A stretch of DNA of 64,000 bases, taken from positions 3,261 to 67,260 of the forward strand of contig JANPJV010000076.1 of NCBI GenBank assembly GCA_031425695.1, written 5' to 3'. The stretch comes from Rhodanobacteraceae bacterium. Lineage in GTDB: Bacteria > Pseudomonadota > Gammaproteobacteria > Xanthomonadales > SZUA-5. Below are positions 3,829 through 58,155 of this stretch, piece after piece (the stretch's first letter is position 1; the number at the start of each line of letters is the position of its first letter). The position numbers and the translations under genes are program-made. Below the pieces are notes generated by a model. It was not told the DNA's origin, searched no databases, and saw only the letters and a list, made by a program, of their open reading frames with translations.

Positions 3829-3842
3829 TTGACGCAGATCAA
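3829..3842. promoter_or_regulatory. FNR/ANR box TTGACgcagATCAA upstream of hemN
   Basis: Matches TTGAT-N4-ATCAA in 9 of 10 positions. Its centre lies 41.5 bp upstream of the hemN ATG at 3877. Confidence 0.7.
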
Positions 3843-3876
3843 GACGCGCCCAGCATCAGCGGGCCACACTGCCCGC

Positions 3877-5271
3877 ATGCCAGCCATCGCCTTCAGCCCC
3901 GAGCTCCTGCGTCGCTACGACCGCCCAGGTCCACGCTATACCTCGTATCCGACGGCACCGCAGTTTCGCGGTGACTTCGGAGAAGACGAGTTGCGGGCCG
4001 CCGCGCTCGCCAGCAATGGCGACCCGATTCCCCGGCGGCTTTCGATTTATGGGCACATGCCGTTTTGCGTGAGCCCATGTTTTTACTGTGGCTGCAATCG
4101 AGTGATCACCCGGGATGTCGCGCGCGGCGAGCAGTACATCGAGCGCCTGTGCGAGGAGATCGATCTCACCGCGCCACTGTTCGATCGCGACCGCGAGGTG
4201 GTGCAACTGCATCTCGGCGGCGGCACGCCCAATTTCTTCACGCCCGCGCAGATCGGTCGGCTGCTGTCGCGCCTGCGCGAGCGTTTCAGCTTCGCAGCGG
4301 CGGCGGATCTGGAGTGTTCGATCGAGCTTGATCCGCGCTTCATCACGGCGGACGAAGTCCACGCGCTCGCCGCTGCAGGCTTCAACCGGGCCAGCCTCGG
4401 CGTGCAGGATTTCGATCCCGCGGTGCAGGAGGCGATCAATCGGGTGCAGGGCATCAAGGAGACCCGTGCGATCGTGGATGCGTGTCGCGCCAGTGGCATG
4501 GGGTCGGTCAACATCGATCTCATCTATGGGCTGCCACGCCAGGAACGCGAGAACTTCCGGCGCACGCTGGAAACGGTCATCGAGATGCGACCTGACCGCC
4601 TCGCCATCTATGGCTACGCACACATGCCGAAGCTGTTCAAGGCGCAGAAGCAGATCGAGGCTGAGGAGTTGCCGTCCGCCGAGGAGCGTCTCGCGTTGTT
4701 GCAACTGGCGATCAGCGAACTCGGCGCGGCCGGCTATCACCATATCGGGATGGATCACTTCGCACTGCCGCACGATGATCTCGCGCAGGCGCTCGAGCGC
4801 GGTTCGCTGCAGCGCAATTTCATGGGTTATACGACCCACGCGCAGACCGACCTGATCGGGCTCGGCATCAGTGCGATCAGCCAGATCGGCGATACCTACA
4901 GCCAGAATCCGCGTGACCTCACTGGCTGGCAGGGCGCGGTCGAGAACGGCCGGCTGCCGGTATTCCGCGGCATGCGCATGAGCGGCGACGACCAGTTGCG
5001 TGCCGATGTCATCCAGCAGCTGATGTGCCAGGGCGAAGTCTTGATCGCGCCGCTCGAGCGCCGCCACGCCATCGCTTTTCGCTCCTATTTCGCGGATGCG
5101 CTCGCGCGCCTGGCCCCTTTGGTGGCGGACGGCCTGGTGAATGTCCGCCACGACCGCATCCGGGTCAGCGGGCACGGGCGCCTGCTCCTACGTAATATCG
5201 CCATGTGCTTCGACCGTTATCTCGACCAGCCCGTGGCGATCTTGCCACCCTCCTTCTCCCGTGCCATCTAG
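3877..5271 (+). CDS. hemN: oxygen-independent coproporphyrinogen III oxidase (radical SAM)
   Basis: Contains GPRYTSYPTAPQF and the radical-SAM motif CVSPCFYCGC, at HemN length. The ORF-track TTG at 3829 is actually the FNR box, so ATG 3877 is used. Confidence 0.93.
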   Translation: MPAIAFSPELLRRYDRPGPRYTSYPTAPQFRGDFGEDELRAAALASNGDPIPRRLSIYGHMPFCVSPCFYCGCNRVITRDVARGEQYIERLCEEIDLTAPLFDRDREVVQLHLGGGTPNFFTPAQIGRLLSRLRERFSFAAAADLECSIELDPRFITADEVHALAAAGFNRASLGVQDFDPAVQEAINRVQGIKETRAIVDACRASGMGSVNIDLIYGLPRQERENFRRTLETVIEMRPDRLAIYGYAHMPKLFKAQKQIEAEELPSAEERLALLQLAISELGAAGYHHIGMDHFALPHDDLAQALERGSLQRNFMGYTTHAQTDLIGLGISAISQIGDTYSQNPRDLTGWQGAVENGRLPVFRGMRMSGDDQLRADVIQQLMCQGEVLIAPLERRHAIAFRSYFADALARLAPLVADGLVNVRHDRIRVSGHGRLLLRNIAMCFDRYLDQPVAILPPSFSRAI

Positions 5272-5284
5272 TGCGAGGGTGGCT

Positions 5285-6037
5285 GTGAGCGCGCCGGCGT
5301 TCCCGCGCAGCGACGTGCGCATTCTCGCGGACGATGGCGACGCCCTGCATTTCTGCTCGACCTGTGCGTTCTCGCAAGCCTGTATCGCCGAGGGCATGCA
5401 CAAGCACGCACTGCTCGATCTGCATGTGCTGGTCGAGCACGTCGGCCCGCTGCACGCCGGGGAACACATCTTTCGCGAGGGCGACCCGTTCGTCGCGATT
5501 GCCGCGGTGCGCGCTGGCACCGTCAAGACCTATGTGATTGATCCGAACGGCGAGGAACAGGTACTCGGCTTCCATTTTCCAGGTGAGGTCATCGGCCTCA
5601 GCGCGATCGATGGCGACCGCTTTCCGTGCAGCGCGGTGGCGCTGGACACGGTCATGCTCTGCCGCTTCTCATTCCAGAAGATGGCACTGCTGGCCACCCG
5701 CGTCCCCGGCCTGCAGCGCCAGCTCTTTCGCCTGCTCAGCCGCGACATCGGCCGCGCTACGCTGCTCGCCGGCGACTGGGCCGCCGACCAGCGTATGGCG
5801 GCTTTCTTGCTGGCCATGTCGCGGCGCCTCTCCGAACGTGGTTTTTCCGCAGTGCGCTTCCAGCTGACCATGGCACGCACCGATATCGCCAATTACCTGC
5901 GCCTAGCCCCCGAAACCGTCAGCCGCGTGCTGCGGCGCTTTCAGGACGACGGGCTCCTGGTCATCGAGCGCCGCGAGGTGGAGATCGTCGACCAGCCCAG
6001 GCTGAATGCGTTGGCGGGGCCGGTGTTGCGGGATTAG
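5285..6037 (+). CDS. fnr: FNR/ANR-type oxygen-sensing Crp-family regulator
   Basis: Has the N-terminal Cys cluster CSTCAFSQAC (C-x2-C-x5-C) plus the central Cys in FPCSAVA, a cNMP-like fold, and the HTH ETVSRVLRRF. The start is uncertain (GTG 5285 or GTG 5315). Confidence 0.85.
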   Translation: MSAPAFPRSDVRILADDGDALHFCSTCAFSQACIAEGMHKHALLDLHVLVEHVGPLHAGEHIFREGDPFVAIAAVRAGTVKTYVIDPNGEEQVLGFHFPGEVIGLSAIDGDRFPCSAVALDTVMLCRFSFQKMALLATRVPGLQRQLFRLLSRDIGRATLLAGDWAADQRMAAFLLAMSRRLSERGFSAVRFQLTMARTDIANYLRLAPETVSRVLRRFQDDGLLVIERREVEIVDQPRLNALAGPVLRD

Positions 6038-6050
6038 GGGGCGGCTTTTA

Positions 6051-6192
6051 GTAGGTCACGTTGCGCCCGCCCGGTGCCCGGATCGATGGTACCGGACGTC
6101 GGGCGCTACGTGACACTCGCGCGAGGCATTGTCACGTAGCCCGATTTGATACAGCGAAAGCATGCGGATCGCGGGCGCAACGTGACCTACGC
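6051..6192. repeat. REPIN-like composite palindromic element (family A: GTAGGTCAYGTTGCSC)
   Basis: The outer inverted pair is gtaggtcacgttgcgcccgc / gcgggcgcaacgtgacctac. The inner inverted pair is gggcgctacgtgaca / tgtcacgtagccc. The same architecture recurs at about 16044-16196 and 17788-17948. Confidence 0.65.
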
Positions 6193-6271
6193 CAGCCATT
6201 CGGAGGGCATCCAAAGCGGCGCGGAGCGCCGCACTCCAAACTGGTGCGGCCGTCTGGCATTTCACCCTCGC

Positions 6272-6285
6272 TTGATCCAGATCAT
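6272..6285. promoter_or_regulatory. FNR/DNR-type box TTGATccagATCAT upstream of norZ
   Basis: Near-consensus palindrome about 60 bp upstream of the probable norZ start. Confidence 0.65.
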
Positions 6286-6338
6286 GGCCCCGCTCCCCCA
6301 TCCGCTCGAACATGCGCTCAACCACCATGGAGAGCGTG

Positions 6339-8690
6339 ATGAGCATTACCCGAAAACTTTGGCTGGGCCTGAGCGCCCTGCTCGTGGTGTCCTTTTCGAT
6401 TCTGCTGTGGGCCGGGACCGAGATTTTTCGCGTTGCGCCGCCGATGCCGGAGCGCGTGGTCAGTGTCGAGGGCGAACTGGTCTACAGCCGCGCCGATATC
6501 GAGCAGGGGCGGCAGGTCTGGCAATCGATCGGCGGCATGCAGCTGGGTTCCATTTGGGGCCATGGCAGTTACGTTGCGCCCGACTGGAGCGCCGATTGGC
6601 TGCACCGCGAAGCGGTCGACGTACTCGACCAGTGGGCCCGCAGCGAGTACGCCAGCGCCACCTATGCCCTGTTGAATGCCGAGCAGCAGGGAGCGCTGCG
6701 CGCGCGTCTGCGCGGGGTCATGCGCACCAATCGCTACGACCAGGCAACGGCGACGATCACGCTGCCGCGCGAACGTGTAATTGCGGTCTCGAACGTGGCC
6801 GCGCACTACATCAGCCTGTTCGGCAACGATCCTGCGACGGCCGCCTTGCGCGAAGCCTATGCGATGAAGAACGACACGGTCGACACGCTGGAGCACCGGC
6901 GCGCGTTGACCGCCTTCATCTGGTGGACTGCGTGGGCGGCGGGGACTGAGCGCCCGGCCGATGCAACAGCGTCCGCGCACAGCGCAGACCCACCACAGGC
7001 AACAGCGGCCACAGCAGGCACGCCGGTCGCGGCTGCCGTCACTTACACCAACAACTGGCCGAGCGAGCCGTTGATCGGCAACACGCCACCGCCGTCACTG
7101 TGGCTGTGGTCGGTGTTCAGCGTGTTGTTCCTGATTGCCGGCATCGGCGCGCTTGGCTGGTTCTACGCGGTCAGCCATGCCAACGAAGATCGTGACCACA
7201 AGCTGCCGGCGAGCGATCCATTCGCTGCGCTCAAGGTCACCCCGTCCATGCGCGCGACTGCGAAGTATTTCTGGGTAGTGCTGGCGCTGTTCCTGACGCA
7301 GATTGCGCTCGGCGCGATCACCGCGCACTACCAGGTGGAAGGCCAGGAAGCCTACGGCTTTGCGCTCGCCGAATACCTGCCGTACTCGCTCGCGCGCACC
7401 TGGCACACGCAACTCGCGGTGCTGTGGATCGCGGTCGCGTGGCTCGCCACCGGCCTCTACATCGCGCCAGCGCTGTCGGGCCACGAGCCGAAATTCCAGC
7501 GGCTCGGCGTCAACTTCCTGTTCGTCAGCCTGCTCATCATCGTCGTCGGCTCATTTGCCGGGCAGTGGCTCGCGGTGATGCAGAAGCTCGGCCTCGACAA
7601 CAATTTCTGGTTCGGTCACCAGGGCTGGGAGTACGCGGACATGGGCCGCTTCTGGCAGTGGTATCTGTTCATCGGTCTGCTGCTGTGGCTGGGCCTGGTG
7701 GGGCGCTCACTGTGGCCGGTGCTGCGCGGGCCCGCACATGAGTCCAAATCGATCATCGCGCTGATGTTCCTGTCGACCGTCGCGATTGGCCTGTTCTTCG
7801 GCGCCGCGCTGATGTGGGGCGAGCACACGCATATCTCCGAAGTCGAATACTGGCGCTGGTGGCTGGTGCACTTGTGGGTGGAAGGCTTCTTCGAGGTGTT
7901 CGCGGCAGCGGTAATGGCACTGATCTTCACCCGCCTCGGTTTGATCAAGACCTCCACCGCGACCGTGGCCGTGCTGTTCGCCACAATCATCTTCATGGCC
8001 GGCGGCGTGCTCGGGACTTTGCATCACCTCTACTTCGTCGGCACGCCGACCGCTGTGGTTGCGCTCGGCGCCAGCTTCAGCGCGCTCGAAGTGGTGCCGC
8101 TCGCCTTCATCGGCTTCGAGGCCTACCACACCTACAAGCTCGGACAGGCAACGCCGTGGATGGCACGCTACAAGTGGCCGATCCTGTTCTTCGTCGCGGT
8201 CTCGTTCTGGAACCTCGTCGGCGCCGGCCTGTTCGGTTTCTTGATCAACCCGCCGGTCTCGCTGTACTACATGCAGGGCTTGAACCTCACCGCCCTGCAT
8301 GGACACACTGCGCTGTTCGGCGTCTACGGCATGCTCGGCATCGCGCTCATGCTGTTCTGTCTGCGCGGTCTGCGCGGGCAGATGGTCTGGGACGCGCGCC
8401 CACTGAAGGTGGCGTTCTGGTCGCTCAACATCGGCCTGACGCTGATGGCCTTGCTGACCCTGCTGCCGATCGGCGTGCTGCAACTGATCGCCGCAATCAG
8501 CCACGGCTACGCCTACGCACGCTCCGCCGATTTCATGCAGCAGCCGCTGATCGAGCTGCTGGTGTGGATGCGCGTTCCGGGCGACACCATCTTCAGCTTC
8601 GGGGCGCTGGCACTGGCGTGGTTCGTATTGCGCCTTTGGGTGGCACCGAAACGGGAGGCGGTGGTGGCGGGGGAGGTGGTGCCGTCGTAG
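6339..8690 (+). CDS. norZ: quinol-dependent nitric oxide reductase (single-subunit qNOR)
   Basis: About 780 aa. It has one N-terminal TM helix, a periplasmic domain, then a 12-TM heme-copper oxidase core (HHLYFVG, WVEGFFEVF). Possible starts are 6312, 6327 and 6339; 6339 follows GGAGAG. Confidence 0.88.
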   Translation: MSITRKLWLGLSALLVVSFSILLWAGTEIFRVAPPMPERVVSVEGELVYSRADIEQGRQVWQSIGGMQLGSIWGHGSYVAPDWSADWLHREAVDVLDQWARSEYASATYALLNAEQQGALRARLRGVMRTNRYDQATATITLPRERVIAVSNVAAHYISLFGNDPATAALREAYAMKNDTVDTLEHRRALTAFIWWTAWAAGTERPADATASAHSADPPQATAATAGTPVAAAVTYTNNWPSEPLIGNTPPPSLWLWSVFSVLFLIAGIGALGWFYAVSHANEDRDHKLPASDPFAALKVTPSMRATAKYFWVVLALFLTQIALGAITAHYQVEGQEAYGFALAEYLPYSLARTWHTQLAVLWIAVAWLATGLYIAPALSGHEPKFQRLGVNFLFVSLLIIVVGSFAGQWLAVMQKLGLDNNFWFGHQGWEYADMGRFWQWYLFIGLLLWLGLVGRSLWPVLRGPAHESKSIIALMFLSTVAIGLFFGAALMWGEHTHISEVEYWRWWLVHLWVEGFFEVFAAAVMALIFTRLGLIKTSTATVAVLFATIIFMAGGVLGTLHHLYFVGTPTAVVALGASFSALEVVPLAFIGFEAYHTYKLGQATPWMARYKWPILFFVAVSFWNLVGAGLFGFLINPPVSLYYMQGLNLTALHGHTALFGVYGMLGIALMLFCLRGLRGQMVWDARPLKVAFWSLNIGLTLMALLTLLPIGVLQLIAAISHGYAYARSADFMQQPLIELLVWMRVPGDTIFSFGALALAWFVLRLWVAPKREAVVAGEVVPS

Positions 8691-8706: not shown

Positions 8707-8964
8707 GTGGGTTCGGACCTTGTCCGAACGCTTTTGCTCACCAAGAGCGTCCGGACAAGGTCCGGACCCACGTACGGCAAGGAAAGCTCGCTTTTACTCA
8801 CCAAGAGCGTCCGGACAAGGTCCGGACCCACGTACGGCAAGGAAAGCTCACTTTTGCTCACCAAGAGCGTCCGGACAAGGTCCGGACCCACGTAAGGCAA
8901 CAAAAGTTCGTGCTCCCATCGTGTCGCGCCTGAGCCGAGAGCGTCCGACAAGGTCCGGCACGTG
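8707..8964. repeat. REP family B array: one inverted unit plus three exact-period 60 bp tandem units and a degenerate fourth
   Basis: The unit gagcgtccggacaaggtccggacccacgta occurs at 8745, 8805 and 8865. An inverted copy (gtgggttcggaccttgtccgaacgctt) lies at 8707. The sequence between units is also repeated. Confidence 0.85.
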
Positions 8965-9011
8965 GATACCGGCCTCACCCATCCATCGCCCTCGCGGGCG
9001 CAACGTGACCC

Positions 9012-10241
9012 ATGAACGAATCTACGATCCCTGTCGCCCCACCACTTTCGCTCCGCCTGCTCGGCGCCGCCCCGCATCGTCTGCTGTTCTTCATCGGCGC
9101 GAGCAATCTGCTGCTGGCGATGGCTTGGTGGGCGGGCTGGCTGGTGGCACGACGCGCCGGCATCGTCATGGAAAGCCCGGCGCTGGCAGCAGGCTGGCTG
9201 CATGCCTATGTCATGCAGTACCAGATGCTACCGAGCTTCATCTTCGGATTCTTGCTGACTGTTTTTCCCAGATGGATGGGATTGCCCGAGCTGCAGCGCT
9301 GGCGCTATGCGCCGGTCGGCATCGGGCTCTTTGGTGGTCAGGTCGCGACCTTGCTCGGTGCGGTCGGTTGGGAGGCGGGCATCACCGTCGGCTGGTGGAT
9401 GAGCCTGGCGGGTTGGATTTCCGGCCTGGCCGCGCTGCTGCCGCTGCTGTGGCGCGAAACCGGCAAGACCTGGCACGCGCGCTCATGCGCCCTCGCGCTC
9501 GTCCTGGGACTGTTCGGCCTGGTCTGTCTTGGCGCGTTCCTGCACGGCGCGCCGGCCCTGTGGCTGTTCTCCAGTATCAAGATCGGCAGCTTTGGATTGC
9601 TGCTGCCGATCTACCTGACCGTTGCGCATCGCATGTTTCCGTTCTTCGCGTCGAACGTGGTGACCGGCTATGTTGCGTGGCGACCGCTGTGGCTGCTTGG
9701 CGCGTTCTGGGGGCTGTGCCTGCTGCACCTGGTGCTGGAACTGGTACACGCCTACCAATGGCTGTGGGCTAGCGACCTGCCGCTGCTCGGACTGTCGCTG
9801 TTGGCCTGCTGGCGCTGGTGGCCGCGTGGTCCGCAACCAGCGCTTCTACGCGTGCTCTTCCTTGGGTTGTTGTGGCTGCCCATCAGCTTCGCGCTGTATT
9901 CATCGCAAACCTTGATCTACCTCTTCACCGGCATCTTTGCGCTCGGCCGTGCCCCCGCGCACGCGCTGTTCGTCGGCTTTTTCGGCAGCGTGCTGGTGGC
10001 GATGGTCACGCGGGTGACGCAGGGACATTCAGGCCGGCCCTTGAGCCTGCCACCGATAGCAGTCTTTGCGTTCGCGGCCATCCAGGTCGTCGCCGTGCTC
10101 CGCGTCGGTGCCGAGCTCATGAAAGACGGGCCGCTGTGGCAGGCGGTCGCGGCGGTCGGCTGGCTGATCGCCTTGGGGCCCTGGGTGGCGTGGCTGGGTG
10201 GCATTTATCTGCGCGCGCGTGTTGATGGGAAACCGGGATAA
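9012..10241 (+). CDS. nnrS: NnrS family membrane protein (NO-response heme/copper protein)
   Basis: N-terminus reads APHRLLFFIGASNLLLAMAWW. It is polytopic, about 400 aa, and sits next to the NO reductase. Confidence 0.8.
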   Translation: MNESTIPVAPPLSLRLLGAAPHRLLFFIGASNLLLAMAWWAGWLVARRAGIVMESPALAAGWLHAYVMQYQMLPSFIFGFLLTVFPRWMGLPELQRWRYAPVGIGLFGGQVATLLGAVGWEAGITVGWWMSLAGWISGLAALLPLLWRETGKTWHARSCALALVLGLFGLVCLGAFLHGAPALWLFSSIKIGSFGLLLPIYLTVAHRMFPFFASNVVTGYVAWRPLWLLGAFWGLCLLHLVLELVHAYQWLWASDLPLLGLSLLACWRWWPRGPQPALLRVLFLGLLWLPISFALYSSQTLIYLFTGIFALGRAPAHALFVGFFGSVLVAMVTRVTQGHSGRPLSLPPIAVFAFAAIQVVAVLRVGAELMKDGPLWQAVAAVGWLIALGPWVAWLGGIYLRARVDGKPG

Positions 10242-10245
10242 ACCC

Positions 10246-10281
10246 GTCAAGTAGCCCGCTTCGCGGGCAACATGACCTACG
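10246..10281. repeat. REP family A unit
   Basis: Sequence gtcaagtagcccgcttcgcgggcaacatgacctacg. Confidence 0.7.
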
Positions 10282-10294
10282 AAAGCGAGGATCC

Positions 10295-10699
10295 ATGATC
10301 GAGTTCTACCCGCAGATCAAATCGGTCCATATCGGCGCGGTGATCGCCAGCGGCGGGTTGTTCCTGTTGCGCGGGATGCTGGTGCAATTGGGACGTGACG
10401 GCTTCGCCATGGCGGCGCCCGTGCGCTACCTCAGCTACACCATCGATTGCGTGCTGCTGACGGCGGCGCTGATGTTGCTGACGATCCTGCCGAAGGAGCT
10501 GTTCGCCAATGGCTGGTTGTGGGTGAAGATCGGGCTGCTGGTGGTGTACATCGTGCTCGGCACATTCGCGCTCAAGCGCGGACGCACGCCGCGGGTCCGG
10601 CTGGTTTGTTATGTGCTGGCGCTCACGGCCTTTGGATTCATGCTGACGGTGGCGCGGGGGCACCATCCGCTGGGGGTGTTGGCGGCGTGGTTGGGGTGA
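10295..10699 (+). CDS. SirB2-like small membrane protein
   Basis: 134 aa with 4 TM helices (MIEFYPQIKSVHIGAVIASGGLFLLRG...). It resembles the SirB/YchQ family; the call is by eye. Confidence 0.55.
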   Translation: MIEFYPQIKSVHIGAVIASGGLFLLRGMLVQLGRDGFAMAAPVRYLSYTIDCVLLTAALMLLTILPKELFANGWLWVKIGLLVVYIVLGTFALKRGRTPRVRLVCYVLALTAFGFMLTVARGHHPLGVLAAWLG

Positions 10700-10708
10700 G
10701 CGTTGGAC

Positions 10709-10809
10709 GTAGGTCATGTTGCCCGCGCCAGCGGGCTACTTGACGCTTTGGCGGTCGCCCCGTTCAACAGCCGTCAAGTAGCCCGCTGCGCGGGCAACAT
10801 GATTACGAG
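10709..10809. repeat. inverted REP family A doublet
   Basis: gtaggtcatgttgcccgcgccagcgggctacttgac at 10709-10744 pairs with gtcaagtagcccgctgcgcgggcaacatgattacgag at 10773-10809. Confidence 0.75.
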
Positions 10810-10829
10810 AGCATTTCTCTAAGCGTCGA

Positions 10830-12053
10830 TCACAAAACCCACTCGAGCTGCAACCACAGCTTGGTCGTATTACGCCCGAAACCCTCGCTGCGGTAATCGG
10901 CCAGCTTGAGCATTCCGGTCAACTTCTCGCCCACCGGAAAGCTCAGTGACGCGTCCCACTCTGTGCCATACCGCGCATTGCCCTGGTCGGCGCGGTAGTC
11001 GTGCCAGGCCAGCGCCCATTTCATCTTTGACGACAGCTCGCCGGTGCCCACGGCGCCGCCGGTGCCGAGGTAACGATCCTCGAGACCTCCCGCGGGGGTG
11101 ACGAGAAACTTGTCGGCCCAGCCATTGAACGCATGCAAGGTTGCCAGCGGTGTCTGCAGGGCGTGGCGTCCATTGCCGCCGAGGTGTTCCCAGCCGGCGC
11201 GCCAGGTCAGACCTGCCTGGGTCCAGCTGGGCTCGAGCAGCCAGTAGGAATGGGTGAAATCGAGTGGATTGTCGGCGTGCTCGCGCTGGCTGGCAGCCTC
11301 GACGCGCCAGCCCAGTCCCTTGCCTTCAACGACGCGACTTCCGGTCCAGCGCGCACCGATGGTCAGCGTCGAGGCGGCAGCTACATCCTGATCGTCATGT
11401 GCGATCAGATAGCCGCCGAATTGCTGCGTTCCGTGAGCAAACCCGGCATCGAATACATGCGTGCCGAGATCGCGCTCGCGTGATTGCCGGTCGAGGGCGT
11501 CGTCGCCATTGCTGCGATGCACGCGGTCGATCCAGAAGTAGCGCGCAGTCCACGCGGCCGTCGGTTTCCATTCGGCCGCGATCGCGTCAAAGGTCTGCTC
11601 GTTCTGGCGCCAGCCGCCATTGCCGACCCAGCGCTGGTTGTCGAGCAGGACCCGCTGGCGCCCGAGCGTGCTGGCCAGTTGCGGGTTCCGCCAGCTCACC
11701 CAGGCCTGGTTGAGCTCCGCGCCTTCAGGATCGACGATGCTCGGGAACGCAGTCTCGCCATTGGCGCCACTGTTGTACTCGTCACCCAGCGCGGCGATGG
11801 CTTCGCCTTCGATCAGAGCGCTCCAGCCGGGCGCCGGGTTGGCACGAACGCCGACCCGCAGGCGCAAGGTCTGGGCGGCAGCCTCGCGCGCAAAGCTGGC
11901 GTCGTCGACCGACTCGTGGCGCAACCGCACATTCGCTTCCATGGCCCAGGGCGGCGCCGCCGCAATCGGCGGCGTCGTCTGCGCGCACGCAACGGTGGCG
12001 AGACTGGACAGCACTGCACCAGCAAGTAATCGCTGGATTGGAATCTTGCTCAT
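10830..12053 (-). CDS. outer-membrane beta-barrel, alginate-export (AlgE-like) family porin
   Basis: Has a signal peptide ending VACAQ, the motif GRQRVLLDNQRWVGNGGWRQNEQTFDA, and a C-terminal LQLEWVL. AAGGAG precedes the ATG. Confidence 0.7.
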   Translation of the reverse strand: MSKIPIQRLLAGAVLSSLATVACAQTTPPIAAAPPWAMEANVRLRHESVDDASFAREAAAQTLRLRVGVRANPAPGWSALIEGEAIAALGDEYNSGANGETAFPSIVDPEGAELNQAWVSWRNPQLASTLGRQRVLLDNQRWVGNGGWRQNEQTFDAIAAEWKPTAAWTARYFWIDRVHRSNGDDALDRQSRERDLGTHVFDAGFAHGTQQFGGYLIAHDDQDVAAASTLTIGARWTGSRVVEGKGLGWRVEAASQREHADNPLDFTHSYWLLEPSWTQAGLTWRAGWEHLGGNGRHALQTPLATLHAFNGWADKFLVTPAGGLEDRYLGTGGAVGTGELSSKMKWALAWHDYRADQGNARYGTEWDASLSFPVGEKLTGMLKLADYRSEGFGRNTTKLWLQLEWVL

Positions 12054-50546: not shown

Positions 50547-50996
50547 TCACGCGGTACGGACTACCAGGACCGGCAGCTTGCCGTGCGCCAGTACTTTCTG
50601 CGCCTGGCTTCCGAGGAAGAGGGCGCCCAAGGTGCTGCGACCATGCGAGCCCATGCAGATGAGATCGCAGCTGCGTTCGAGCGCGGTGGCGAGAATCAAC
50701 TGGTGCGGACGCGAATCCACGGCATGCGCCAGCTCGCACTCGACCCCAGCCGCGTGGCACGCACGGGACACGTGCGCCAGTACACCCTCGGCCTCGATAT
50801 TCGCCAGGCGCAGGTATTCCTCCCGGCTCGGGTATGCATAGGACTGGAAGGCAGAGTCCAGGGGCGGGAGGAAATCCGGGACGGCGTGCACGCCGGTGAT
50901 GCGGGCGCCGAGCGTTTTCGCCAGGGCGACTGCATGCTCAATCACTGTCTGGGAGGACACCGAGCCATCGATCGCGATCAGGATATGCCGGTACAT
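50547..50996 (-). CDS. universal stress protein (single domain)
   Basis: Contains MYRHILIAIDGS and ...GSHGRSTLGALFLGSQAQKVLAHGKLPVLVV. Confidence 0.85.
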   Translation of the reverse strand: MYRHILIAIDGSVSSQTVIEHAVALAKTLGARITGVHAVPDFLPPLDSAFQSYAYPSREEYLRLANIEAEGVLAHVSRACHAAGVECELAHAVDSRPHQLILATALERSCDLICMGSHGRSTLGALFLGSQAQKVLAHGKLPVLVVRTA

Positions 50997-51051
50997 TGAA
51001 TTTCCCTGTGGCCGAAGTGCCCAACTGTACGCGTAGGCCGGCGGCACCGAA

Positions 51052-51065
51052 TTGACCCGGATCAA
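51052..51065. promoter_or_regulatory. FNR box TTGACccggATCAA upstream of the USP gene
   Basis: The centre lies 62.5 bp upstream of ATG 50996. Confidence 0.7.
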
Positions 51066-51089: not shown

Positions 51090-51300
51090 CGCTGGGACGA
51101 GCCCCGATGACTCGACGACGCGACACTTGAAGCGATCTTTCCGCCCGGCGTGCCGCAGTTGTTCACCCACTGCCGTCCGGAGCCGTAATCTTGGCGACGA
51201 GCGGCACATCGACAGCGGCCCACAGACCACGCGCGCGCTCGGCTACATCTATCGGGCCGGCCGATGAACTAGCTGCCTTGCGTGGACCCGGCAATCCAGC
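51090..51300 (+). pseudogene. relic of the 3' end of a phosphoketolase-family paralog
   Basis: LDDATLEAIFPPGVPQLFTHCRPEP-stop, then a frameshift, then IDSGPQTTRALGYIYRAG. This parallels LDDAALEEIFPTGVPRVFITHTRPEPYLGALRRIDSGPQTTRALGYINRGG at 60580-60730. Confidence 0.7.
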
Positions 51301-51379: not shown

Positions 51380-52099
51380 GTGACCGACCCGCCCCATCTG
51401 CTGGTAGTCGAGGACGAGGCTGAGATCGCCGAGATGCTGCGCCGTTATTTCAGCGGCCAGGGCTTTCGCGTGAGTCTCGCCAGCGACGGCACGCAGATGC
51501 GTGCAGTGCTGGCGCGGGAGGCGATCACGCTGGTGCTGCTCGATCTCGGCCTGCCTGGCGAGGATGGTTTCGAGCTGACGCGGCACCTCACCAGCGAATG
51601 GCGTGGGCCGGTGATCATCGTCAGCGGCCGGGGCGACGCGTTTGATCGGGTGGTGGGCCTGGAGCTTGGCGCTGACGATTACGTGACCAAGCCGTTCGAG
51701 CTGCGCGAACTGCTCGCTCGGGTGCGCAGCGTGCTGCGTCGCAGCGCGACGCTGCCGGCACCGCCGGAGCCTGAGCACAGCAGCGTCTTCGAGTTTGAGG
51801 GATTTCGCCTGCGTCTCGATGCGCGCTCATTGATTGACGCCAGCGGGCGCGAGGTGGCGCTGACCACCGGCGAGTTCGAGCTGCTCCATGCGCTGGTGTC
51901 GCAACCCAACCGGGTGCTCTCCCGTGACCAGCTGATGAACGCGCTGCACCGCCGCGACGCGGGGCCGTTCGATCGTGCCATCGATGTCCAGATCGGCCGG
52001 CTGCGGCGCAAGATCGAAGCCGATCCGGCGCAGCCGGCGATCATCAAATCGGTCCGCGGGGCCGGCTATCTGTGCGCCGCGCGCGTGCAGCGCGGCTGA
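51380..52099 (+). CDS. OmpR-family response regulator
   Basis: Receiver domain (LLVVEDE...LLDLGLPGEDG) plus a winged-helix C-terminus (IKSVRGAGY). GTG start. Confidence 0.9.
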   Translation: MTDPPHLLVVEDEAEIAEMLRRYFSGQGFRVSLASDGTQMRAVLAREAITLVLLDLGLPGEDGFELTRHLTSEWRGPVIIVSGRGDAFDRVVGLELGADDYVTKPFELRELLARVRSVLRRSATLPAPPEPEHSSVFEFEGFRLRLDARSLIDASGREVALTTGEFELLHALVSQPNRVLSRDQLMNALHRRDAGPFDRAIDVQIGRLRRKIEADPAQPAIIKSVRGAGYLCAARVQRG

Positions 52100-52112: not shown

Positions 52113-54101
52113 ATGGAATACGGCACGGCGATCTTCCGGGCGCTGTTCGAGACCGCCCCCGATGCGATGCTGGTGGTCGATTCCACGGGCAAGATCGTCC
52201 TCGCCAACCCCCAGGCCGCGCGCCTGTTCGGCCACGAGGACGCCGGGTTGACCGGTCACCCCATCGAAGTGCTGATCCCGGATGAAGCGCGTTCGGCCCA
52301 TATCGGTCATCGCAATCGCTACATGGCTCATCCGCGTGTGCGCCCCATGGGAGCGGGCCAGGAGCTGACCGGCTTGCGGCGCGACCAGAGCCGCTTCCCG
52401 ATCGAAATCGCGCTGAGCCCGATCGAAGCCGATGGTGAACGCCTGTTCGTCGCTTCCATCCGCGACATCTCCGACACCCAACGCGCCCGCCAAGCGCTGG
52501 CGCGTGCACGCTACGACACCTATCTCGCCCAGGCAGGCCAGCTGGCGCTGGAATCCAGTATCGAGGCCACGCTCGACCGCCTGCCAGAGATGCTGGTCCT
52601 GGCATTGGAGACCGACGCGGCGCTGGTGATCTTCGGCCACGAAGGCCAGGTACCGCAGGTGCGCGCGGCGATCGGCGTGCGCGAGCATGAGCTCGATCCC
52701 CTGCTGGCGGCGCTCGGCAGCGCTTTGCCGCCAGCGGCTGCGTCCGGCGGCTCGCGGGAAATCGAATGGCCGGCGGCGGATGTGGCGATGGTGGGATTCA
52801 CCGCCGGCATCGCTGCGCGCCTGTCAGATTTCGATCGGTCCCGGGGCTCGATCAGCGTACTTTCGCGCAGCCCGCGCGAATTCGACCGCGAGGCCGCCCA
52901 CTTCCTGCAATCGGTCGCCAACCTGCTGTCGGCCGCGCTGCAGCGCGACCAGAGCCAGGAGCAGCTTGCGCACGCCCAACGCCTGGAAGCCATCGGCCAG
53001 CTCACCGGCGGTATCGCCCACGATTTCAATAACCTGCTCACCGTGGTCTCCGGCAACCTGCAACTGGTCGAAGCCGAGGTGGGCGAGCAACAGCCGCAGA
53101 CGCTCGAGCTGATCGGCAGCGCCCTGCGCGCCGTCGGCCGTGGTGCCGAGCTCACCCGCAAGCTGCTCGCATTTGCGCGGCGGCAGCGGCTCAGCCCGCG
53201 CGCGATCGATCCCGCGCAATTGCTGGGCGAGCTCGCGCAGATGTTGCGGCGTACGCTGGCCGAGCGCGTCGAGCTGGAACTGGTGTGTGCACCCGAGACT
53301 CCGCCGGTGTTCGCCGATCCGGCGCAGCTCGAGGCGGCGCTGATCAATCTCTCGCTGAATGCGCGCGATGCCATGCCGCAGGGCGGCAGGCTGCGCATCG
53401 AGGCGCGCGCGCATCGCCCCGAGGACGACGTGGCGGACGATGCGGGGATGGACGGCGAGCACGTGATGTTCGAGGTCAGCGACAGCGGTACCGGCATGAG
53501 CCCGGAGGTGCTGGCGCGCGCCTTCGAGCCGTTCTTTACGACCAAGGAGCAGGGCAAGGGCAGCGGGCTCGGCCTCAGCATGGTGTACGGCTTCGTCAAG
53601 CAATCCGGTGGCTTCCTGCGCACCCGTTCGCGTGTCGGCCAAGGTACGCGCATTGCGTTGGTCTTGCCCCGGGCACGGCAGGCGCAGACGGCGGCGGCCA
53701 CGGTGAAGGGCGCACTCCCGCGCGGGGACGAGCGCGTGCTGGTGGTCGAGGACGAACCGGATGTGCGCGGCATCGCCGTCGCCTTCCTCAAATCCCTGGG
53801 CTATCGCGTCGAGGCCGCGGCGAGCGCCGACGAGGCTGCTGAATTGCTCGGCAAGCACCGAGATATCACGCTGCTGTTCTCCGACGTGATCCTGGGCTCC
53901 GGGCGTACCGGGGCCGAGCTGGCGCGGGATCTTTGCCGGGAGCGTCCACGCCTCGCGGTCTTGCTGACCTCCGGCTACGAGCGTCCCGCGGCCGATGCCG
54001 ACGAGCAGCCTGGTCGTGAGTTCGAGCTGTTGCGCAAGCCCTACAGCCGCGAGCAACTGGCGGCCGCGCTCAGGCGCGCCTTGAGCGCGCTGCTGCCGTG
54101 A
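52113..54101 (+). CDS. hybrid sensor histidine kinase (PAS, GAF-like, HisKA, HATPase, receiver)
   Basis: PAS domain (FETAPDAMLVVDSTGKIVLAN), the HisKA motif GGIAHDFNNLL, HATPase motifs DSGTGM and GSGLGLS, and a C-terminal receiver (VLVVEDEP...). Confidence 0.88.
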   Translation: MEYGTAIFRALFETAPDAMLVVDSTGKIVLANPQAARLFGHEDAGLTGHPIEVLIPDEARSAHIGHRNRYMAHPRVRPMGAGQELTGLRRDQSRFPIEIALSPIEADGERLFVASIRDISDTQRARQALARARYDTYLAQAGQLALESSIEATLDRLPEMLVLALETDAALVIFGHEGQVPQVRAAIGVREHELDPLLAALGSALPPAAASGGSREIEWPAADVAMVGFTAGIAARLSDFDRSRGSISVLSRSPREFDREAAHFLQSVANLLSAALQRDQSQEQLAHAQRLEAIGQLTGGIAHDFNNLLTVVSGNLQLVEAEVGEQQPQTLELIGSALRAVGRGAELTRKLLAFARRQRLSPRAIDPAQLLGELAQMLRRTLAERVELELVCAPETPPVFADPAQLEAALINLSLNARDAMPQGGRLRIEARAHRPEDDVADDAGMDGEHVMFEVSDSGTGMSPEVLARAFEPFFTTKEQGKGSGLGLSMVYGFVKQSGGFLRTRSRVGQGTRIALVLPRARQAQTAAATVKGALPRGDERVLVVEDEPDVRGIAVAFLKSLGYRVEAAASADEAAELLGKHRDITLLFSDVILGSGRTGAELARDLCRERPRLAVLLTSGYERPAADADEQPGREFELLRKPYSREQLAAALRRALSALLP

Positions 54102-54812
54102 TCAATGCGCGGTCGCACCCGAGCTTGCCAGCTCCGACAGCGCCTGCGCATCCAGGATGCGAATCTCGCGGCGCGTGACATCCAGCAGGCCACGTTCGCG
54201 CAGGTGGGAGATTGCACGGGTGACGGTTTCGAGTTGCAGGTTAAGAAAGCTCCCGATCTCGGCGCGCGTCATGCGCAGGACGAAATGCGTCGCGCTGAAG
54301 CCGAGTGCGTGCAGGCGACGCCCGAGATCGAGCAGCAGCGTCGCCACGCGCTGTTCGGCGCCGAGCGTGCCGACCGACAGCAGCCACTGGCGCTCGGCGC
54401 GGACCTGGGCCGAGAGCTGCAGGGTCATCGCGGCCTGCAGCTCGGGCTGGCGCGCGGCCGCGGACATCAGGTCGCACATCGCGATTTCCCAGACTTCACT
54501 ATCCTCGAGCGCGAGCGCGTCACCCTCGTGGGTGCCTGCGCCGATCGACTCCAGCGCCAGCAGCTCGCCACGCAGGTGAAACCCGGTAACGCGTTCGCGA
54601 CCATCGCTCGAGGCGAGCACCGATTTGATGCAACCGGCATTGACGAAATAGACCGCGCGCAGCACTTGGCCGGCCCGATATAGCGCCTGGCCGGCACTGA
54701 TCCGGCGTCGCGCAAAGGCGACCGAGCGCTGCAGCAGCTCCTGGCTGATCCCGGCGGCAATCAGCGGCTGTGCCAGGGTGCGGACACTGTTGAGCGTGCG
54801 GGTAGCGAGCAT
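54102..54812 (-). CDS. Crp/Fnr-family regulator lacking the FNR Cys cluster (DNR/NNR-like)
   Basis: cNMP-binding fold plus the HTH ETVTRAISHLRERG, with no N-terminal cysteines. Confidence 0.8.
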   Translation of the reverse strand: MLATRTLNSVRTLAQPLIAAGISQELLQRSVAFARRRISAGQALYRAGQVLRAVYFVNAGCIKSVLASSDGRERVTGFHLRGELLALESIGAGTHEGDALALEDSEVWEIAMCDLMSAAARQPELQAAMTLQLSAQVRAERQWLLSVGTLGAEQRVATLLLDLGRRLHALGFSATHFVLRMTRAEIGSFLNLQLETVTRAISHLRERGLLDVTRREIRILDAQALSELASSGATAH

Positions 54813-54929
54813 TCTGGGGCATTCCGGCGAGTCAGTGAGATCAGCTTAGGCAGTGGTCGCGACGCCACGACTTCACTCGGTAACGGCTCGGTAACAGCGT
54901 GTTTCAGCGTGCTCCATGCAGCTCGGGAG

Positions 54930-54943
54930 TTGATCCGGATCAA
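54930..54943. promoter_or_regulatory. FNR box TTGATccggATCAA between the Crp/Fnr gene and the tandem USP gene
   Basis: Perfect palindrome in a divergent intergenic region. Confidence 0.75.
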
Positions 54944-54999
54944 CTCCCGTTCGACGCATCCATCGACAATGGTCGCTGACGATCAAATTCCTCCGGACC

Positions 55000-55806
55000 G
55001 TGAGCGTGCAGGACATTCTTCTTCTCTCCGGGCTGCCGCTGTCGAAACCGACGGTGCGCTATGCCGCTGAGCTCGCCGGGCTCTGGAATGGCCAGCTCAC
55101 CGGCCTGCACGTGTGCGCTCCGCTGAGCATGCAGCTCGATCCGGCGCGCCCGGCGGCGATGAGCATGCAACTGCAGTGGGAACAGGACCGGCTCGCGCGA
55201 GCCCGCGCCGCCGCCGATGACTTTGAGCGCTGCGCGGGTACGGCAAGCCACGGCCGCTGCTCCTGGAAGACCGCCACTGGCGCGCTCGCGGAAGTCGTCG
55301 CATCGATAGCGAACTGGCATGACCTGCTGCTCGTGCAGCGCGGAGCCGAGCTTCCGGGAGGGTCGATGGCATCGCTGGCGCAGTTGATCCTGACCAGTGC
55401 GGTGCCGGTCATGGTGCTGCCACCGACGGCCGAGCCGCTACGGCTGGGGCGCATCGCGGTGCTCTGGGATGGAACGCCAGAAGCCACCCGAGCGCTGCAC
55501 GCCGCGCTGGCGTCACTGCGGACCGCGACCGCGGTAGCCGTGTTTGCGAACGCCGGCGACGAAGCTAACCGTGGCAACTTCAATCTGGCCCAATACCTGC
55601 AGGCCCACGCAGTTGCGCACTCCGTTCACGCCATTGATTCAAGCACCCTGACCGCCGCGCGGGTGCTCACGGCCATCGCCGAGTTCCAACCCGACCTGTT
55701 GGTGCTCGGCGCGCGCGGCAACGGCCGTTTCGGTGAATGGAGACTCGATGGGTTTTGTGGCTCGCTGATTGAAACCGCTCACATTCCGGTGCTCACCGCG
55801 AGCTAG
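55000..55806 (+). CDS. tandem-domain universal stress protein
   Basis: Two USP-like halves, with a C-terminal GARGNGRFGEWRLDGFCGSLIETAHIPVL. GTG start. Confidence 0.75.
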   Translation: MSVQDILLLSGLPLSKPTVRYAAELAGLWNGQLTGLHVCAPLSMQLDPARPAAMSMQLQWEQDRLARARAAADDFERCAGTASHGRCSWKTATGALAEVVASIANWHDLLLVQRGAELPGGSMASLAQLILTSAVPVMVLPPTAEPLRLGRIAVLWDGTPEATRALHAALASLRTATAVAVFANAGDEANRGNFNLAQYLQAHAVAHSVHAIDSSTLTAARVLTAIAEFQPDLLVLGARGNGRFGEWRLDGFCGSLIETAHIPVLTAS

Positions 55807-56781: not shown

Positions 56782-56969
56782 CGTGTTCGGAACCTCGAGT
56801 CAGTCAATGCCGAGAGTGTAGCGAAAGTGCGGCCGGCCACCAGCGGCCTGCCAGTCCGTGCAGCTCGGCCGGTCGCGCCGGCAACAATCTCCATCGGCGC
56901 GATAGAATTGGCGCGATATCGCCGTCAGATCACTTCGGTGCAGACCCCGTCACGACTGAGAACCCGAGC

Positions 56970-57461
56970 ATGAGCAAGAAATCCAAAGCCACCGGTATCG
57001 ACATCGGCATCAGCGGCAGCGATCGCAAGGCGATCACCGACGGCCTGTCGCGTCTGCTGGCCGACAGCTACACGCTGTACCTGATGACCCACAACTTCCA
57101 CTGGAACGTCACCGGGCCGCAGTTCAACAGCCTGCACATGATGTTCATGACCCAGTACACCGAGCAGTGGACCGCCCTCGACCAGATCGCCGAGCGCATC
57201 CGCGCACTCGGTTATCCCGCGCCCGGGACGTACAAGGAGTTCGTCGCGCTGGCGTCGATCGAGGAAGTCGAGGGCGTGCCGAAGGCCAATGCGATGGTGC
57301 GGCACCTGATCAACGCACACGAGAGCACGGCCCGCACCGCGCGCTCCTTGTTCAACGCGGTCAACGCCGCCAATGACCAGCCGACCGCCGACCTGCTGAC
57401 CCAGCGCCTCGAGGTCCACGAAAAGACGGCATGGATGCTGCGCAGCCTGCTGGAGGAGTAA
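56970..57461 (+). CDS. dps: Dps (DNA starvation/stationary-phase protection ferritin-like protein)
   Basis: Contains LLADSYTLYLMTHNFHWNVTGPQFNSLHMMF and ...DLLTQRLEVHEKTAWMLRS. Confidence 0.92.
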   Translation: MSKKSKATGIDIGISGSDRKAITDGLSRLLADSYTLYLMTHNFHWNVTGPQFNSLHMMFMTQYTEQWTALDQIAERIRALGYPAPGTYKEFVALASIEEVEGVPKANAMVRHLINAHESTARTARSLFNAVNAANDQPTADLLTQRLEVHEKTAWMLRSLLEE

Positions 57462-57923
57462 TCAAGGCATCGACCGAGTGTGCCCACGGGCCGGCTCGAC
57501 TTGATTCGCGTCGATTTCCCCGGCGCCGCTTTGGCGCAGCGCGCCCACTTCGCCGCGCAAGCTCAGGATCTCGGTGCGCAGTTGGCCGATGGCATGCAGG
57601 AGGTCGCGCTCGATCTGGCGTTCTTCGGCCTGCACGAACATCGCGGCCACCGAGGCCGTGACCAGTGAGAGCACGGCCAATCCCAGCAGGACGACGAGCA
57701 CCGAAAACACACGCGATGCGAACGTGGTCGGGACGATGTCGCCGTAGCCCACCGTGGCGGCGGTGGTAAACGCGAGCCACAGGCCATCGCCGAAGCTTTG
57801 CGCGCTCGGCTCGATCAGCCAGAAACCCAGCCCGCCCAGCCCGAGGATCAACAGGCACAGGAGCAGCGGGTAGACCAGTCCGTTGCGGGTAATCAGGCGC
57901 TTGCGGTGCGGTGATCGTTTCAT
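57462..57923 (-). CDS. two-TM potassium channel
   Basis: Has the selectivity filter TVGYGD flanked by two TM helices, and a C-terminal coiled coil. Confidence 0.85.
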   Translation of the reverse strand: MKRSPHRKRLITRNGLVYPLLLCLLILGLGGLGFWLIEPSAQSFGDGLWLAFTTAATVGYGDIVPTTFASRVFSVLVVLLGLAVLSLVTASVAAMFVQAEERQIERDLLHAIGQLRTEILSLRGEVGALRQSGAGEIDANQVEPARGHTRSMP

Positions 57924-57957
57924 CTGCCGACGCTATGCGCCCAGGCGCATGAGCATT

Positions 57958-57971
57958 GTGATCCAGGTCAA
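57958..57971. promoter_or_regulatory. FNR-like box (minus-strand reading TTGACctggATCAC) upstream of the K+ channel
   Basis: One mismatch in the right half-site. The centre lies exactly 41.5 bp upstream of the channel ATG. Confidence 0.55.
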
Positions 57972-58141
57972 TTCGCGACCAAGCCGCGACCCCGGCGGGC
58001 CGGTGGCGCGCGTCGCGGCTTGAAGCCCTCGGAAAGTGACGTGGTAAGGGACAGGTCCTGACCATCCGGGTGCCGGAAGTTTTAAATATGCGCGTCAGGG
58101 TCTGAACGCCATGGCGGCTCAAGCGGGCGACCAGCCGTGAG

Positions 58142-58155
58142 TTGACCTCGATCAT
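58142..58155. promoter_or_regulatory. FNR box TTGACctcgATCAT upstream of the phosphoketolase-family gene
   Basis: The centre lies exactly 41.5 bp upstream of an in-frame ATG at 58190. Confidence 0.6.

Follow-up and report, generated by a model that had tools for sequence, protein, structure and literature searches.

The window analyzed here, a 64,000-nt stretch of contig JANPJV010000076.1 from a Rhodanobacteraceae bacterium, carries 12 short palindromes resembling binding sites (boxes) for FNR/ANR-type regulators, among them sites upstream of hemN, norZ, nirK, azurin, ccoN and universal stress protein (USP) genes, and it encodes two regulators of the Crp/Fnr type, one with a cysteine cluster (FNR1) and one without (Crp2). 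Our gene map of the window combines codon statistics with Pfam and NCBIfam scans and comprises 86% coding and 14% intergenic DNA; the gene names given in the original prediction hold up in these scans. We searched the window with the motif TTGAYNNNNRTCAA and took the chance level from dinucleotide-preserving shuffles. All 12 coordinates listed in that prediction were recovered, eight as exact matches (3829, 12202, 15434, 16221, 33170, 33210, 51052 and 54930) and four with one mismatch (6272, 12111, 57958 and 58142). The candidate boxes, the associated −10 hexamers and predicted transcription start sites (TSSs), and the first two genes are as follows.

3719-3732, strand not assigned: doubtful 13th site, TTGGCATCGATCAA, the only further intergenic site with at most one mismatch
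3829-3842, plus strand: candidate FNR box TTGACGCAGATCAA for hemN(-fnr1); −10-like CACACT at 3865-3870; predicted TSS 3877
3877-5271, plus strand: hemN, oxygen-independent coproporphyrinogen III oxidase (TIGR00538, 562 bits; cut-off 325)
5285-6037, plus strand: FNR1, Cys-cluster regulator of the FNR/ANR type, 13 nt after hemN
6272-6285, plus strand: candidate FNR box TTGATCCAGATCAT for norZ; −10 GAACAT at 6308-6313; predicted TSS about 6320
12111-12124, minus strand: candidate FNR box for an AlgE-like outer-membrane channel gene (10830-12053); −10 GATTCT at 12083-12088; predicted TSS about 12076
12202-12215, plus strand: candidate FNR box for nirK (12280-13809); −10 CAATCT at 12238-12243; predicted TSS about 12250
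15434-15447, plus strand: candidate FNR box for azurin (15509-15949); −10 CAAGCT at 15470-15475; predicted TSS about 15482
16221-16234, plus strand: candidate FNR box for ccoNO(Q)P-ccoGH-ccoI(S) (16289 to about 24762); −10 GATACT at 16257-16262; predicted TSS about 16269
33170-33183, minus strand: candidate FNR box for a P2-type cation ATPase; −10 TAGGAT at 33142-33147; predicted TSS about 33135
33210-33223, plus strand: candidate FNR box facing the beta-CASP side; −10 TAAGTT at 33246-33251; predicted TSS about 33258
51052-51065, minus strand: candidate FNR box for USP1 (50547-50996); −10 TACAGT at 51024-51029; predicted TSS about 51017
54930-54943, plus strand: candidate FNR box for the tandem USP gene USP2 (55006-55806); −10 GACAAT at 54965-54970; predicted TSS about 54978
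57958-57971, minus strand: candidate FNR box GTGATCCAGGTCAA for a small K+ channel (57462-57923); −10 TAGCGT at 57930-57935
58142-58155, plus strand: candidate FNR box for a phosphoketolase-family gene (58373-60901); −10 TAAAGT at 58178-58183; predicted TSS about 58190

Among the genes downstream of these sites, the public gene call for hemN also gives a protein of 464 aa, and the TIGR00538 profile is matched from residue 5. The norZ gene (qNor, 6339-8690) encodes a quinol-type NorB to which a cytochrome c-like domain is fused. NirK is fused to cytochrome c (TIGR02376, 363 bits), and its gene is followed by an FGE/NirV-like gene and SCO1. Azurin has a match in the Protein Data Bank (PDB) with E = 2e-44, and Pfam recognizes three USP genes in the window.

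The eight exact matches compare with 0.12 ± 0.36 in the shuffles, and the 20 matches with at most one mismatch compare with 2.97 ± 1.67. All eight exact sites are intergenic (P = 1.4e-7), as are 13 of the 20 in the larger set (P = 2e-7), which has a density of about 1.5 per kb in intergenic DNA versus 0.13 per kb in coding DNA. The seven coding sites modestly exceed the roughly three expected, and three of them disrupt the TGA/TCA core. The looser pattern TGA-N6-TCA has 14 of its 31 matches in the intergenic 14% of the window, and exact matches occur in the window at five times the frequency seen across 1.54 Mb of loci belonging to 80 other genomes. A position weight matrix ranked the 12 sites above all coding matches, a result that is circular and to which we give no weight. 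Within the window, then, the comparison of intergenic with coding frequency that the original prediction had proposed as a check goes in its favor, and its reading of the sites as FNR/ANR-type operators in promoter positions is supported.

The claim that every site is intergenic holds for all 12, and 10 of them lie, as claimed for all, 40 to 120 bp ahead of a start codon. Measured from the box center, the distance to the start is 41.5 bp for hemN and the K+ channel, 60.5 to 71.5 bp for norZ, ccoN, USP1, the porin, azurin, USP2 and nirK, and 89.5 bp for the P2-type ATPase (box 33170). The two sites outside the range are box 33210, centered 129.5 bp from the start of the ATPase gene and 316.5 bp from that of the beta-CASP gene, and box 58142, centered 224.5 bp from the phosphoketolase-like start at 58373. 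Thirteen sites had been announced; only 12 were listed, all of them real, and the 13th is at most the site at 3719. That site has a mismatch at core position 4, no −10 was found for it at center +29.5, and a search of the short hemN upstream region of a related locus (L090) found no second box; we keep it only as doubtful. The boxes fall into two blocks, one at 3.8-25 kb and the other comprising 27-34 kb plus 46.9-61 kb, with unrelated genes between. No boxes were found in a central stretch of about 15 kb (roughly 35-50 kb), which holds genes for P-II/SbtA, TerC, M48, TerB, HPF, Kup, phospholipase D (PLD) and LysR proteins. A respiratory and stress regulon responding to low oxygen is plausible, but the proposal of a single regulon of about 55 kb was too generous.

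The most telling new evidence is the spacing downstream of the boxes. With the promoters aligned on the box, 11 of 13 box/orientation pairs have the minimal −10 signature NANNNT (A at position 2, T at position 6) beginning precisely 22 bp past the box (center +29.5), which against an intergenic background of 3.6% corresponds to P of about 1e-14. At any other offset from +17.5 to +38.5 the signature occurs in zero to two pairs, and in the opposite orientation it occurs in 1 of 11. In Escherichia coli, class II FNR promoters are defined by a box centered at −41.5. A hexamer at −12 to −7 would put the box center at −41.5, and the boxes are accordingly predicted to occupy this class II position. 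Because the geometry of box and −10 is fixed, it also gives each box a direction. Two earlier assignments change as a result: box 33210, thought to serve the P-type ATPase, points to the plus strand, and box 54930, described as the site of the Crp/Fnr regulator gene, has its −10 placed for USP2 rather than for crp2. As a crp2 promoter box 54930 was rejected, since no −10 is rightly placed in that direction and crp2 has its own repeat and TAnnnT hexamer. Predicted leaders measure 19 to 48 nt for 9 of the 12 units, and Shine-Dalgarno sequences are clear before norZ, the porin gene, nirK, azurin, USP1 and the phosphoketolase-like gene and weak before ccoN, the ATPase gene and USP2. An Rfam scan of the long leaders returned no known RNA.

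Boxes and layout recur in related loci (designated by L numbers), among them the contexts of Crp2 homologs found by exact-protein look-up, which between them contain the gene set of the window. Box conservation is seen at 45% to 74% protein identity; eight proteins of the window, looked up by exact sequence among about 15 billion proteins, have no relative with at least 90% identity. An exact look-up of Crp2 yielded only a 3.5-kb Logan contig, and megablast against plasmids reached no more than about 80% identity, with cco and nirK genes of Ralstonia; gene content and the best protein matches point tentatively to relatives of the Lysobacterales/Rhodanobacteraceae. The gene order hemN-fnr-norZ-nnrS-sirB-porin is found in L090, and nirK-c-FGE-SCO1 in L088, L089 and L091. 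The nirK boxes lie at 65.5 to 75.5 bp in four of four cases (the window and these three loci), and the norZ boxes at 60.5 bp in the window and 64.5 bp in L090. The related loci also carry genes for USPs, GNAT, XFP, a K+ channel, phasin and a fragment of class II ribonucleotide reductase (RNR), with boxes also before the USP, GNAT, XFP and phasin genes. Back-to-back double boxes, like the pair at 33170 and 33210, occupy divergent promoters in L005, L090 and L091, including some between divergent USP genes, and the arrangement of box, USP gene and crp2 is the same in L083. L091 has eight exact boxes in 20.7 kb, denser than the window, and L005, from Lysobacter arvi, has seven exact boxes before genes for a P2 ATPase, a BON-domain protein, USPs, GNAT and an XFP-like protein with acetate kinase.

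At three places (hemN, the K+ channel gene and ATG 58190) an ATG lies exactly 41.5 bp from the box center, which is the predicted TSS. For hemN, ATG 3877 is the only possible start, as the reading frame upstream of it contains just one other start codon, the TTG within the box. No Shine-Dalgarno sequence was found ahead of hemN or the K+ channel gene. The 41.5-bp spacing of the hemN box recurs in four of four genomes, being found with a −10 at +29.5 in L087 (Rudaea cellulosilytica), L089 and L090 as well as in the window, at a HemN identity of about 59% in L089 and L090. Because the spacing recurs, the start is fixed and a Shine-Dalgarno sequence is lacking, we regard a leaderless hemN mRNA that begins at the A of ATG 3877 as a well-founded prediction. 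The K+ channel mRNA may be leaderless too, its predicted TSS being the A of the ATG at 57923; this layout was looked for in L091 and is not kept there. For the phosphoketolase-like gene we rejected a leaderless mRNA from ATG 58190: homologs begin at the equivalent of residues 62 to 71, the G+C content at third codon positions is 0.57 in 58190-58372 versus 0.80 in the gene, and the Shine-Dalgarno sequence GAGGAA precedes ATG 58373 instead. The start is at 58373, which leaves the box well upstream of it rather than near it, as had been claimed, and the predicted 5′ untranslated region is about 183 nt.

FNR1, located as originally proposed, has the features of an FNR/ANR-type regulator. PF00027, PF13545 and PF00325 all match, giving the Crp/Fnr architecture of a cNMP-binding-like domain and a Crp-type HTH; C24, C27, C33 and C126 (CX2CX5C plus the Cys122 equivalent) align with the cysteines of the E. 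coli and Aliivibrio fischeri FNR proteins, and the PDB alignment is concordant; and the recognition helix reads ETVSR at residues 210-214. Its best match among solved structures is A. fischeri FNR (E = 5e-48). The four Cys ligands, the helix and the structure match bear out its description as a Cys-cluster FNR. The hemN and fnr1 genes, which also adjoin each other in L090, probably share an operon, and because of this probable cotranscription we infer that fnr1 is positively autoregulated through the hemN box.

The second regulator, also found where it had been placed, lies in a cluster of genes and sites at the right end of the window.

51380-52099, plus strand: OmpR-family response regulator with a Trans_reg_C domain
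52113-54101, plus strand: hybrid histidine kinase with a FixL-type heme-PAS domain, convergent with crp2
54102-54812, minus strand: Crp2, Cys-less regulator of the FNR clade; Trp occupies the Cys122 position and the recognition helix reads ETVTR
54880-54905, minus strand: tandem repeat GAAAC-N5-GTTAC-N6-GTTAC upstream of crp2, then TAAGCT at 54843-54848

All four FNR Cys ligands are absent from Crp2, in line with the description of this regulator as cluster-less, but its assignment to the DNR/NNR type does not stand. Structure matches give E = 1e-34 for FNR, 4e-20 for FixK2 and 6e-8 for DNR (3dkw), the best NCBIfam match is the Fnr model, and the FixK equivalog model scores 62 bits versus a cut-off of 300; we therefore rejected a DNR/NNR-like Crp2, FNR being far closer. 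Among 5.8 billion protein clusters, the 119 closest relatives without exception lack the N-terminal Cys cluster, carry Trp at the Cys122 position and read ETVTR in the helix. The triad of response regulator, heme-PAS kinase and convergent crp2 is present in seven of seven independent contexts, and the response-regulator orthologs, 62% to 74% identical, adjoin crp2 in all contexts. The PAS domain, at residues 1-130 of the kinase, matches FixL heme domains with E = 3.6e-19, with the proximal His aligned and Gln in place of Arg220. Aligning the regions upstream of crp2, which are otherwise unconserved, revealed the consensus G(T/A)(T/A)AC-N5-GTTAC, of which the window has a third copy, with a conserved TAnnnT about 31 bp further. 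The GTTAC repeat precedes crp2 in nine of nine loci (in addition to the window, L005 at about 1204, L083 at 9909, L085 at 9789, L087 at 9894, L088 at 8350, L089 at 9894, L090 at 9896 and L091 at 9887) and has no match in 1.55 Mb of other loci. Tandem repeats with a period of 10 to 11 bp that overlap the −35 region are typical of activators of the OmpR/PhoB type, and 54880-54905 is probably where the OmpR-type regulator binds, the repeat and the TAAGCT hexamer together forming the predicted promoter of crp2.

Taken together, we favor, with a probability of about 85%, the reading that the 12 palindromes are sites for FNR-family activators at class II promoters of a low-oxygen regulon, with a likely second input through Crp2. 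The sites, their enrichment, fixed geometry and conservation and the features of the proteins are observed directly, and from these we deduce DNA binding, the oxygen response, the TSS positions, the leaderless hemN and K+ channel mRNAs and the assignment of regulators to boxes. Each box would replace a −35 element at a fixed distance upstream of a weak −10. As oxygen falls, FNR1 would build its [4Fe-4S] cluster, dimerize, bind the boxes and recruit RNA polymerase. It would thereby turn on hemN-fnr1, that is, oxygen-independent heme synthesis and its own gene; nirK-cytochrome c and norZ, for nitrite and nitric oxide (NO) reduction; and azurin, the outer-membrane channel and the cbb3 oxidase with its assembly genes. 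It would also turn on a survival module resembling the lxa locus of Burkholderia cenocepacia, with two USP genes, the P2-type cation ATPase, DUF2933/beta-CASP RNase, the K+ channel and the phosphoketolase-family enzyme. In parallel, the heme-PAS hybrid kinase may act through the OmpR-type regulator and the GTTAC repeat on crp2, and Crp2, whose recognition helix retains Glu and Arg, would then bind the same boxes as FNR1.

Several points weigh against this reading. The −10 hexamers were sought near the expected place only, the scan of offsets from +17.5 to +38.5 serving as the control; the USP2 hexamer sits 1 bp nearer the box (+28.5), and the −10 elements of L. arvi (L005) are all shifted by 1 bp. 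FNR1 scores 199.6 bits with the NCBIfam model PRK11161, under the cut-off of 228, although this is an enterobacterial subfamily model and still its best NCBIfam match by far. The DUF2933 open reading frame (ORF) has one canonical start codon only, TTG 33250, and this falls within the hexamer predicted as the −10 of the 33210 promoter; the ORF may be a decayed gene. When boxes were sought upstream of phosphoketolase-like homologs, most genomes had none there, L005 being the one exception among the regions examined in that comparison, so membership of this gene in the regulon would be lineage specific; the XFP genes of L005 and L091 do have boxes upstream. Lastly, nirK and nor in many denitrifiers need the NO-responsive regulator DNR/NnrR, which acts on the same FNR-like box and for which nnrS is named, and such a regulator could be encoded outside the window.

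This last point is the core of an alternative that we consider unlikely, in which the boxes of nirK, norZ, porin and azurin are read mainly by an outside DNR/NnrR and FNR1 and Crp2 serve the hemN, cco and stress genes, making two overlapping regulons. The window takes up nearly all of a 68-kb contig, which leaves most of the genome unseen, and nnrS adjoins norZ in the window. However, no DNR/NnrR gene is present in the window or in L083-L085 and L087-L091 (up to 10 kb on each side of crp2, with the same nirK/norZ genes), the box sequences of respiratory and stress genes are indistinguishable, and Crp2 is far nearer to FNR than to DNR.

It is somewhat less probable that FNR1 alone uses the boxes and that Crp2 binds another operator, owing to the change from Ser to Thr in its helix, or represses or anti-activates at these sites. 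All 119 proteins of the Crp2 clade have ETVTR where FNR proteins have ETVSR or ETISR, and the helix Ser contacts the outer T:A pair that separates FNR from CRP sites. Yet the Glu and Arg that contact the TGA core are invariant in the clade, L005 and L091 have a Crp2 homolog and no visible FNR1 gene but many TTGA-N6-TCAA boxes, and no other repeated palindrome was found in the intergenic regions of the window. The idea that the palindromes arose by chance, or belong to a dispersed repeat, and play no part in regulation is effectively refuted: inverted repeats (GTAGGTCACGTTGCGCCCGC) resembling repetitive extragenic palindromes (REP) or miniature inverted-repeat transposable elements (MITE) do lie 25 to 80 bp upstream of the norZ and ccoN boxes, but the REP elements contain no boxes, the flanks of the boxes are mutually unrelated, enrichment is far above the shuffles, and fixed −10 spacing and conservation across genomes are unlike repeats.

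A low-oxygen regulon built on FNR-family activators has clear precedents. In FNR, Anr and FixK regulons, TTGAT-N4-ATCAA boxes are a standard feature upstream of hemN, ccoN, azurin, nir/nor and USP genes. With the class II systems of E. coli FNR and Pseudomonas aeruginosa ANR the window shares the consensus, the inferred −10 spacing, a regulator with CX2CX5C...C and E-SR, and the classic targets hemN, ccoN, azurin, nirK/nor and USP genes. Unlike these systems, it has predicted leaderless hemN and K+ channel mRNAs, an fnr1 gene downstream of hemN, and a second, Cys-less FNR relative. The lxa locus of B. cenocepacia (Sass et al. 2013) comprises 50 genes with 17 intergenic TGA-N6-TCA motifs, including those for six USPs, a cation ATPase, a metal-dependent RNase and a four-gene ABC system, and has an Anr-related regulator beside a two-component system (PMC3721108). 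The lxa locus and the cluster in the window are both about 50 kb long, with many intergenic TGA-N6-TCA motifs and several USP genes, both have a Crp/Anr-type regulator adjoining a response regulator and a sensor kinase, and the right half of the window has the cation P-type ATPase, beta-CASP RNase and four-gene ABC system in common with lxa, a likeness that compares Pfam families with published annotations. Membership was thus not as far beyond the textbook FNR set as had been thought, given its resemblance to this published locus (PMC3721108). In contrast to lxa, the module in the window is joined to nirK/norZ/cbb3/hemN and adds the K+ channel and phosphoketolase-family genes; it has none of the polyhydroxyalkanoate, alcohol dehydrogenase, alpha-crystallin and class II RNR genes of lxa. 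The lxa regulator BCAM0287 is reported to retain its Cys cluster (PMC4505428), whereas Crp2 has none.

The second input is reminiscent of FixLJ-FixK of rhizobia and Caulobacter, where a FixL-type heme-PAS kinase likewise stands beside a Cys-less Crp/Fnr regulator. Like FixK, Crp2 is predicted to act on TTGA-N6-TCAA, with cbb3, hemN, denitrification and stress genes as its targets. The likeness has limits, as the response regulator is OmpR-type, unlike the NarL/LuxR-type FixJ; the kinase, unlike FixL, is a hybrid with a receiver domain and has Gln for Arg220 of BjFixL; and Crp2, with 62 bits under the FixK cut-off of 300, is nearer to FNR. The proposed cascade from kinase to response regulator to crp2 to boxes is analogous to FixLJ-FixK, with a regulator of another family. 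Several Crp/Fnr regulators on one type of box, grading the oxygen response, are also a feature of organisms with multiple Fnr proteins, such as Herbaspirillum seropedicae (Fnr1-3; PMC5934665), Pseudomonas putida (PMC4505428) and Dinoroseobacter shibae (FnrL/Dnr; PMC5398030). The P. putida and Burkholderia paralogs are reported to carry the Cys cluster (PMC4505428), whereas the paralog in the window lacks every Cys ligand; the partners in D. shibae are Dnr regulators, whereas the paralog here appears to be under two-component control.

The type of regulon is thus known, its content and motif density matching those of the lxa locus and the Anr/FixK regulons; what is modestly original is the prediction that the hemN mRNA is leaderless, along with the second sensing cascade. 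In the literature, which we covered incompletely and whose silence is therefore weak evidence, we found no description of the Cys-less Trp-122 clade, its triad or a leaderless FNR-dependent hemN. We propose, tentatively and at somewhat less than even odds, that this lineage, together with Rudaea, L. arvi and several metagenome-assembled genomes, has a distinct cascade of heme-PAS kinase, OmpR-type regulator and Crp2 that converges with a [4Fe-4S] FNR on one set of operators, giving two oxygen sensors of different chemistry, along with leaderless hemN. A link from a FixL-like kinase to an OmpR-type regulator would explain how a Cys-less FNR clade senses oxygen without a cluster. For an uncultured or little-studied lineage, the window yields a clean map of a low-oxygen regulon that can be tested, with a predicted TSS for each of 12 promoters. 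It indicates that the lxa-type survival module extends beyond Burkholderia and can join denitrification and cbb3 genes under the same operator, and leaderless FNR-dependent hemN transcripts appear to be conserved.

Several of the target genes are unusual in themselves. The P2-type ATPase (Ca/PMR1-like; 29794-33087, minus strand) carries a heavy-metal-associated (HMA) domain in an extra N-terminal segment of about 175 residues; plasmid-borne homologs align only from residue ~176, and the HMA/P2-ATPase fusion is unusual. A homolog on a Polaromonas plasmid was uninformative about the promoter, its upstream region having been replaced by insertion sequences. On the other side of the double box, the DUF2933 ORF (33250-33489, plus strand; Pfam E = 8e-19) precedes the beta-CASP RNase gene (33533-34918), and a transcript from the 33210 promoter is predicted to cross the former into the latter. 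The USP1 transcript possibly extends into Mla-like ABC genes (46870-50432).

The predicted product of 58373-60901 is a divergent phosphoketolase-family protein, which scores 142 bits with the best NCBIfam model versus a cut-off of 962 and matches XFP and partial XFP_N only. In other genomes (L002, L006-L069; for example, L043 at 6194-7567 and 10001-12442) a beta-CASP RNase gene is followed, after a gap of 2.4 kb, by a phosphoketolase-like gene and a P1B ATPase gene. This set keeps identical spacing in many Lysobacterales and in Alcaligenaceae, with no FNR boxes in the cases checked, which suggests a widely transferred module. In L. arvi, acetate kinase directly follows the phosphoketolase-like gene (L005, 12449-13588), an order that fits ATP formation from acetyl phosphate under oxygen limitation. 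Within the window, 74 nt between USP1 and the response-regulator gene (51188-51261) are 78% identical to 60663-60736 in the 3′ part of the phosphoketolase-like gene and are probably the remnant of a second copy.

Other repeats are scattered through the window. Three tandem 60-nt repeats (8729-8908) lie between norZ and nnrS, each with a hairpin GTCCGGAC-aag-GTCCGGAC, and a partial fourth copy (18721-18780) lies between ccoO and ccoP. The REP/MITE-like elements, made up of GTAGGTCACGTTGCGCCCGC and its complement, are intergenic at 6044-6191, 16037-16196, 17786-17948, 8987-9014, 10704-10744 and 22128-22267. At the left edge, a P4-type tyrosine integrase gene (1169-2473, minus strand; Arm-DNA-bind_3, Phage_int_M and Phage_integrase) raised the idea of a genomic island, which we did not retain: a tRNA search of the window found none, and a general repeat search, not aimed at island ends, found no obvious flanking direct repeats. 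Within the box-free stretch, an AT-richer 85-nt element is present at 40436-40520 and 45770-45854 (82% identical), upstream of the HPF and PLD/cardiolipin-synthase genes (minus strand) and with a TerC paralog beside each copy; the set looks like a second, box-free coregulated group or a segmental duplication. Finally, a PAS ORF (25859-26446) and a GGDEF ORF (26757-27146), separated by about 310 bp, correspond jointly to one PAS-GGDEF gene of L091 at 52% to 53% identity, and this gene appears to be split or disrupted in the window.

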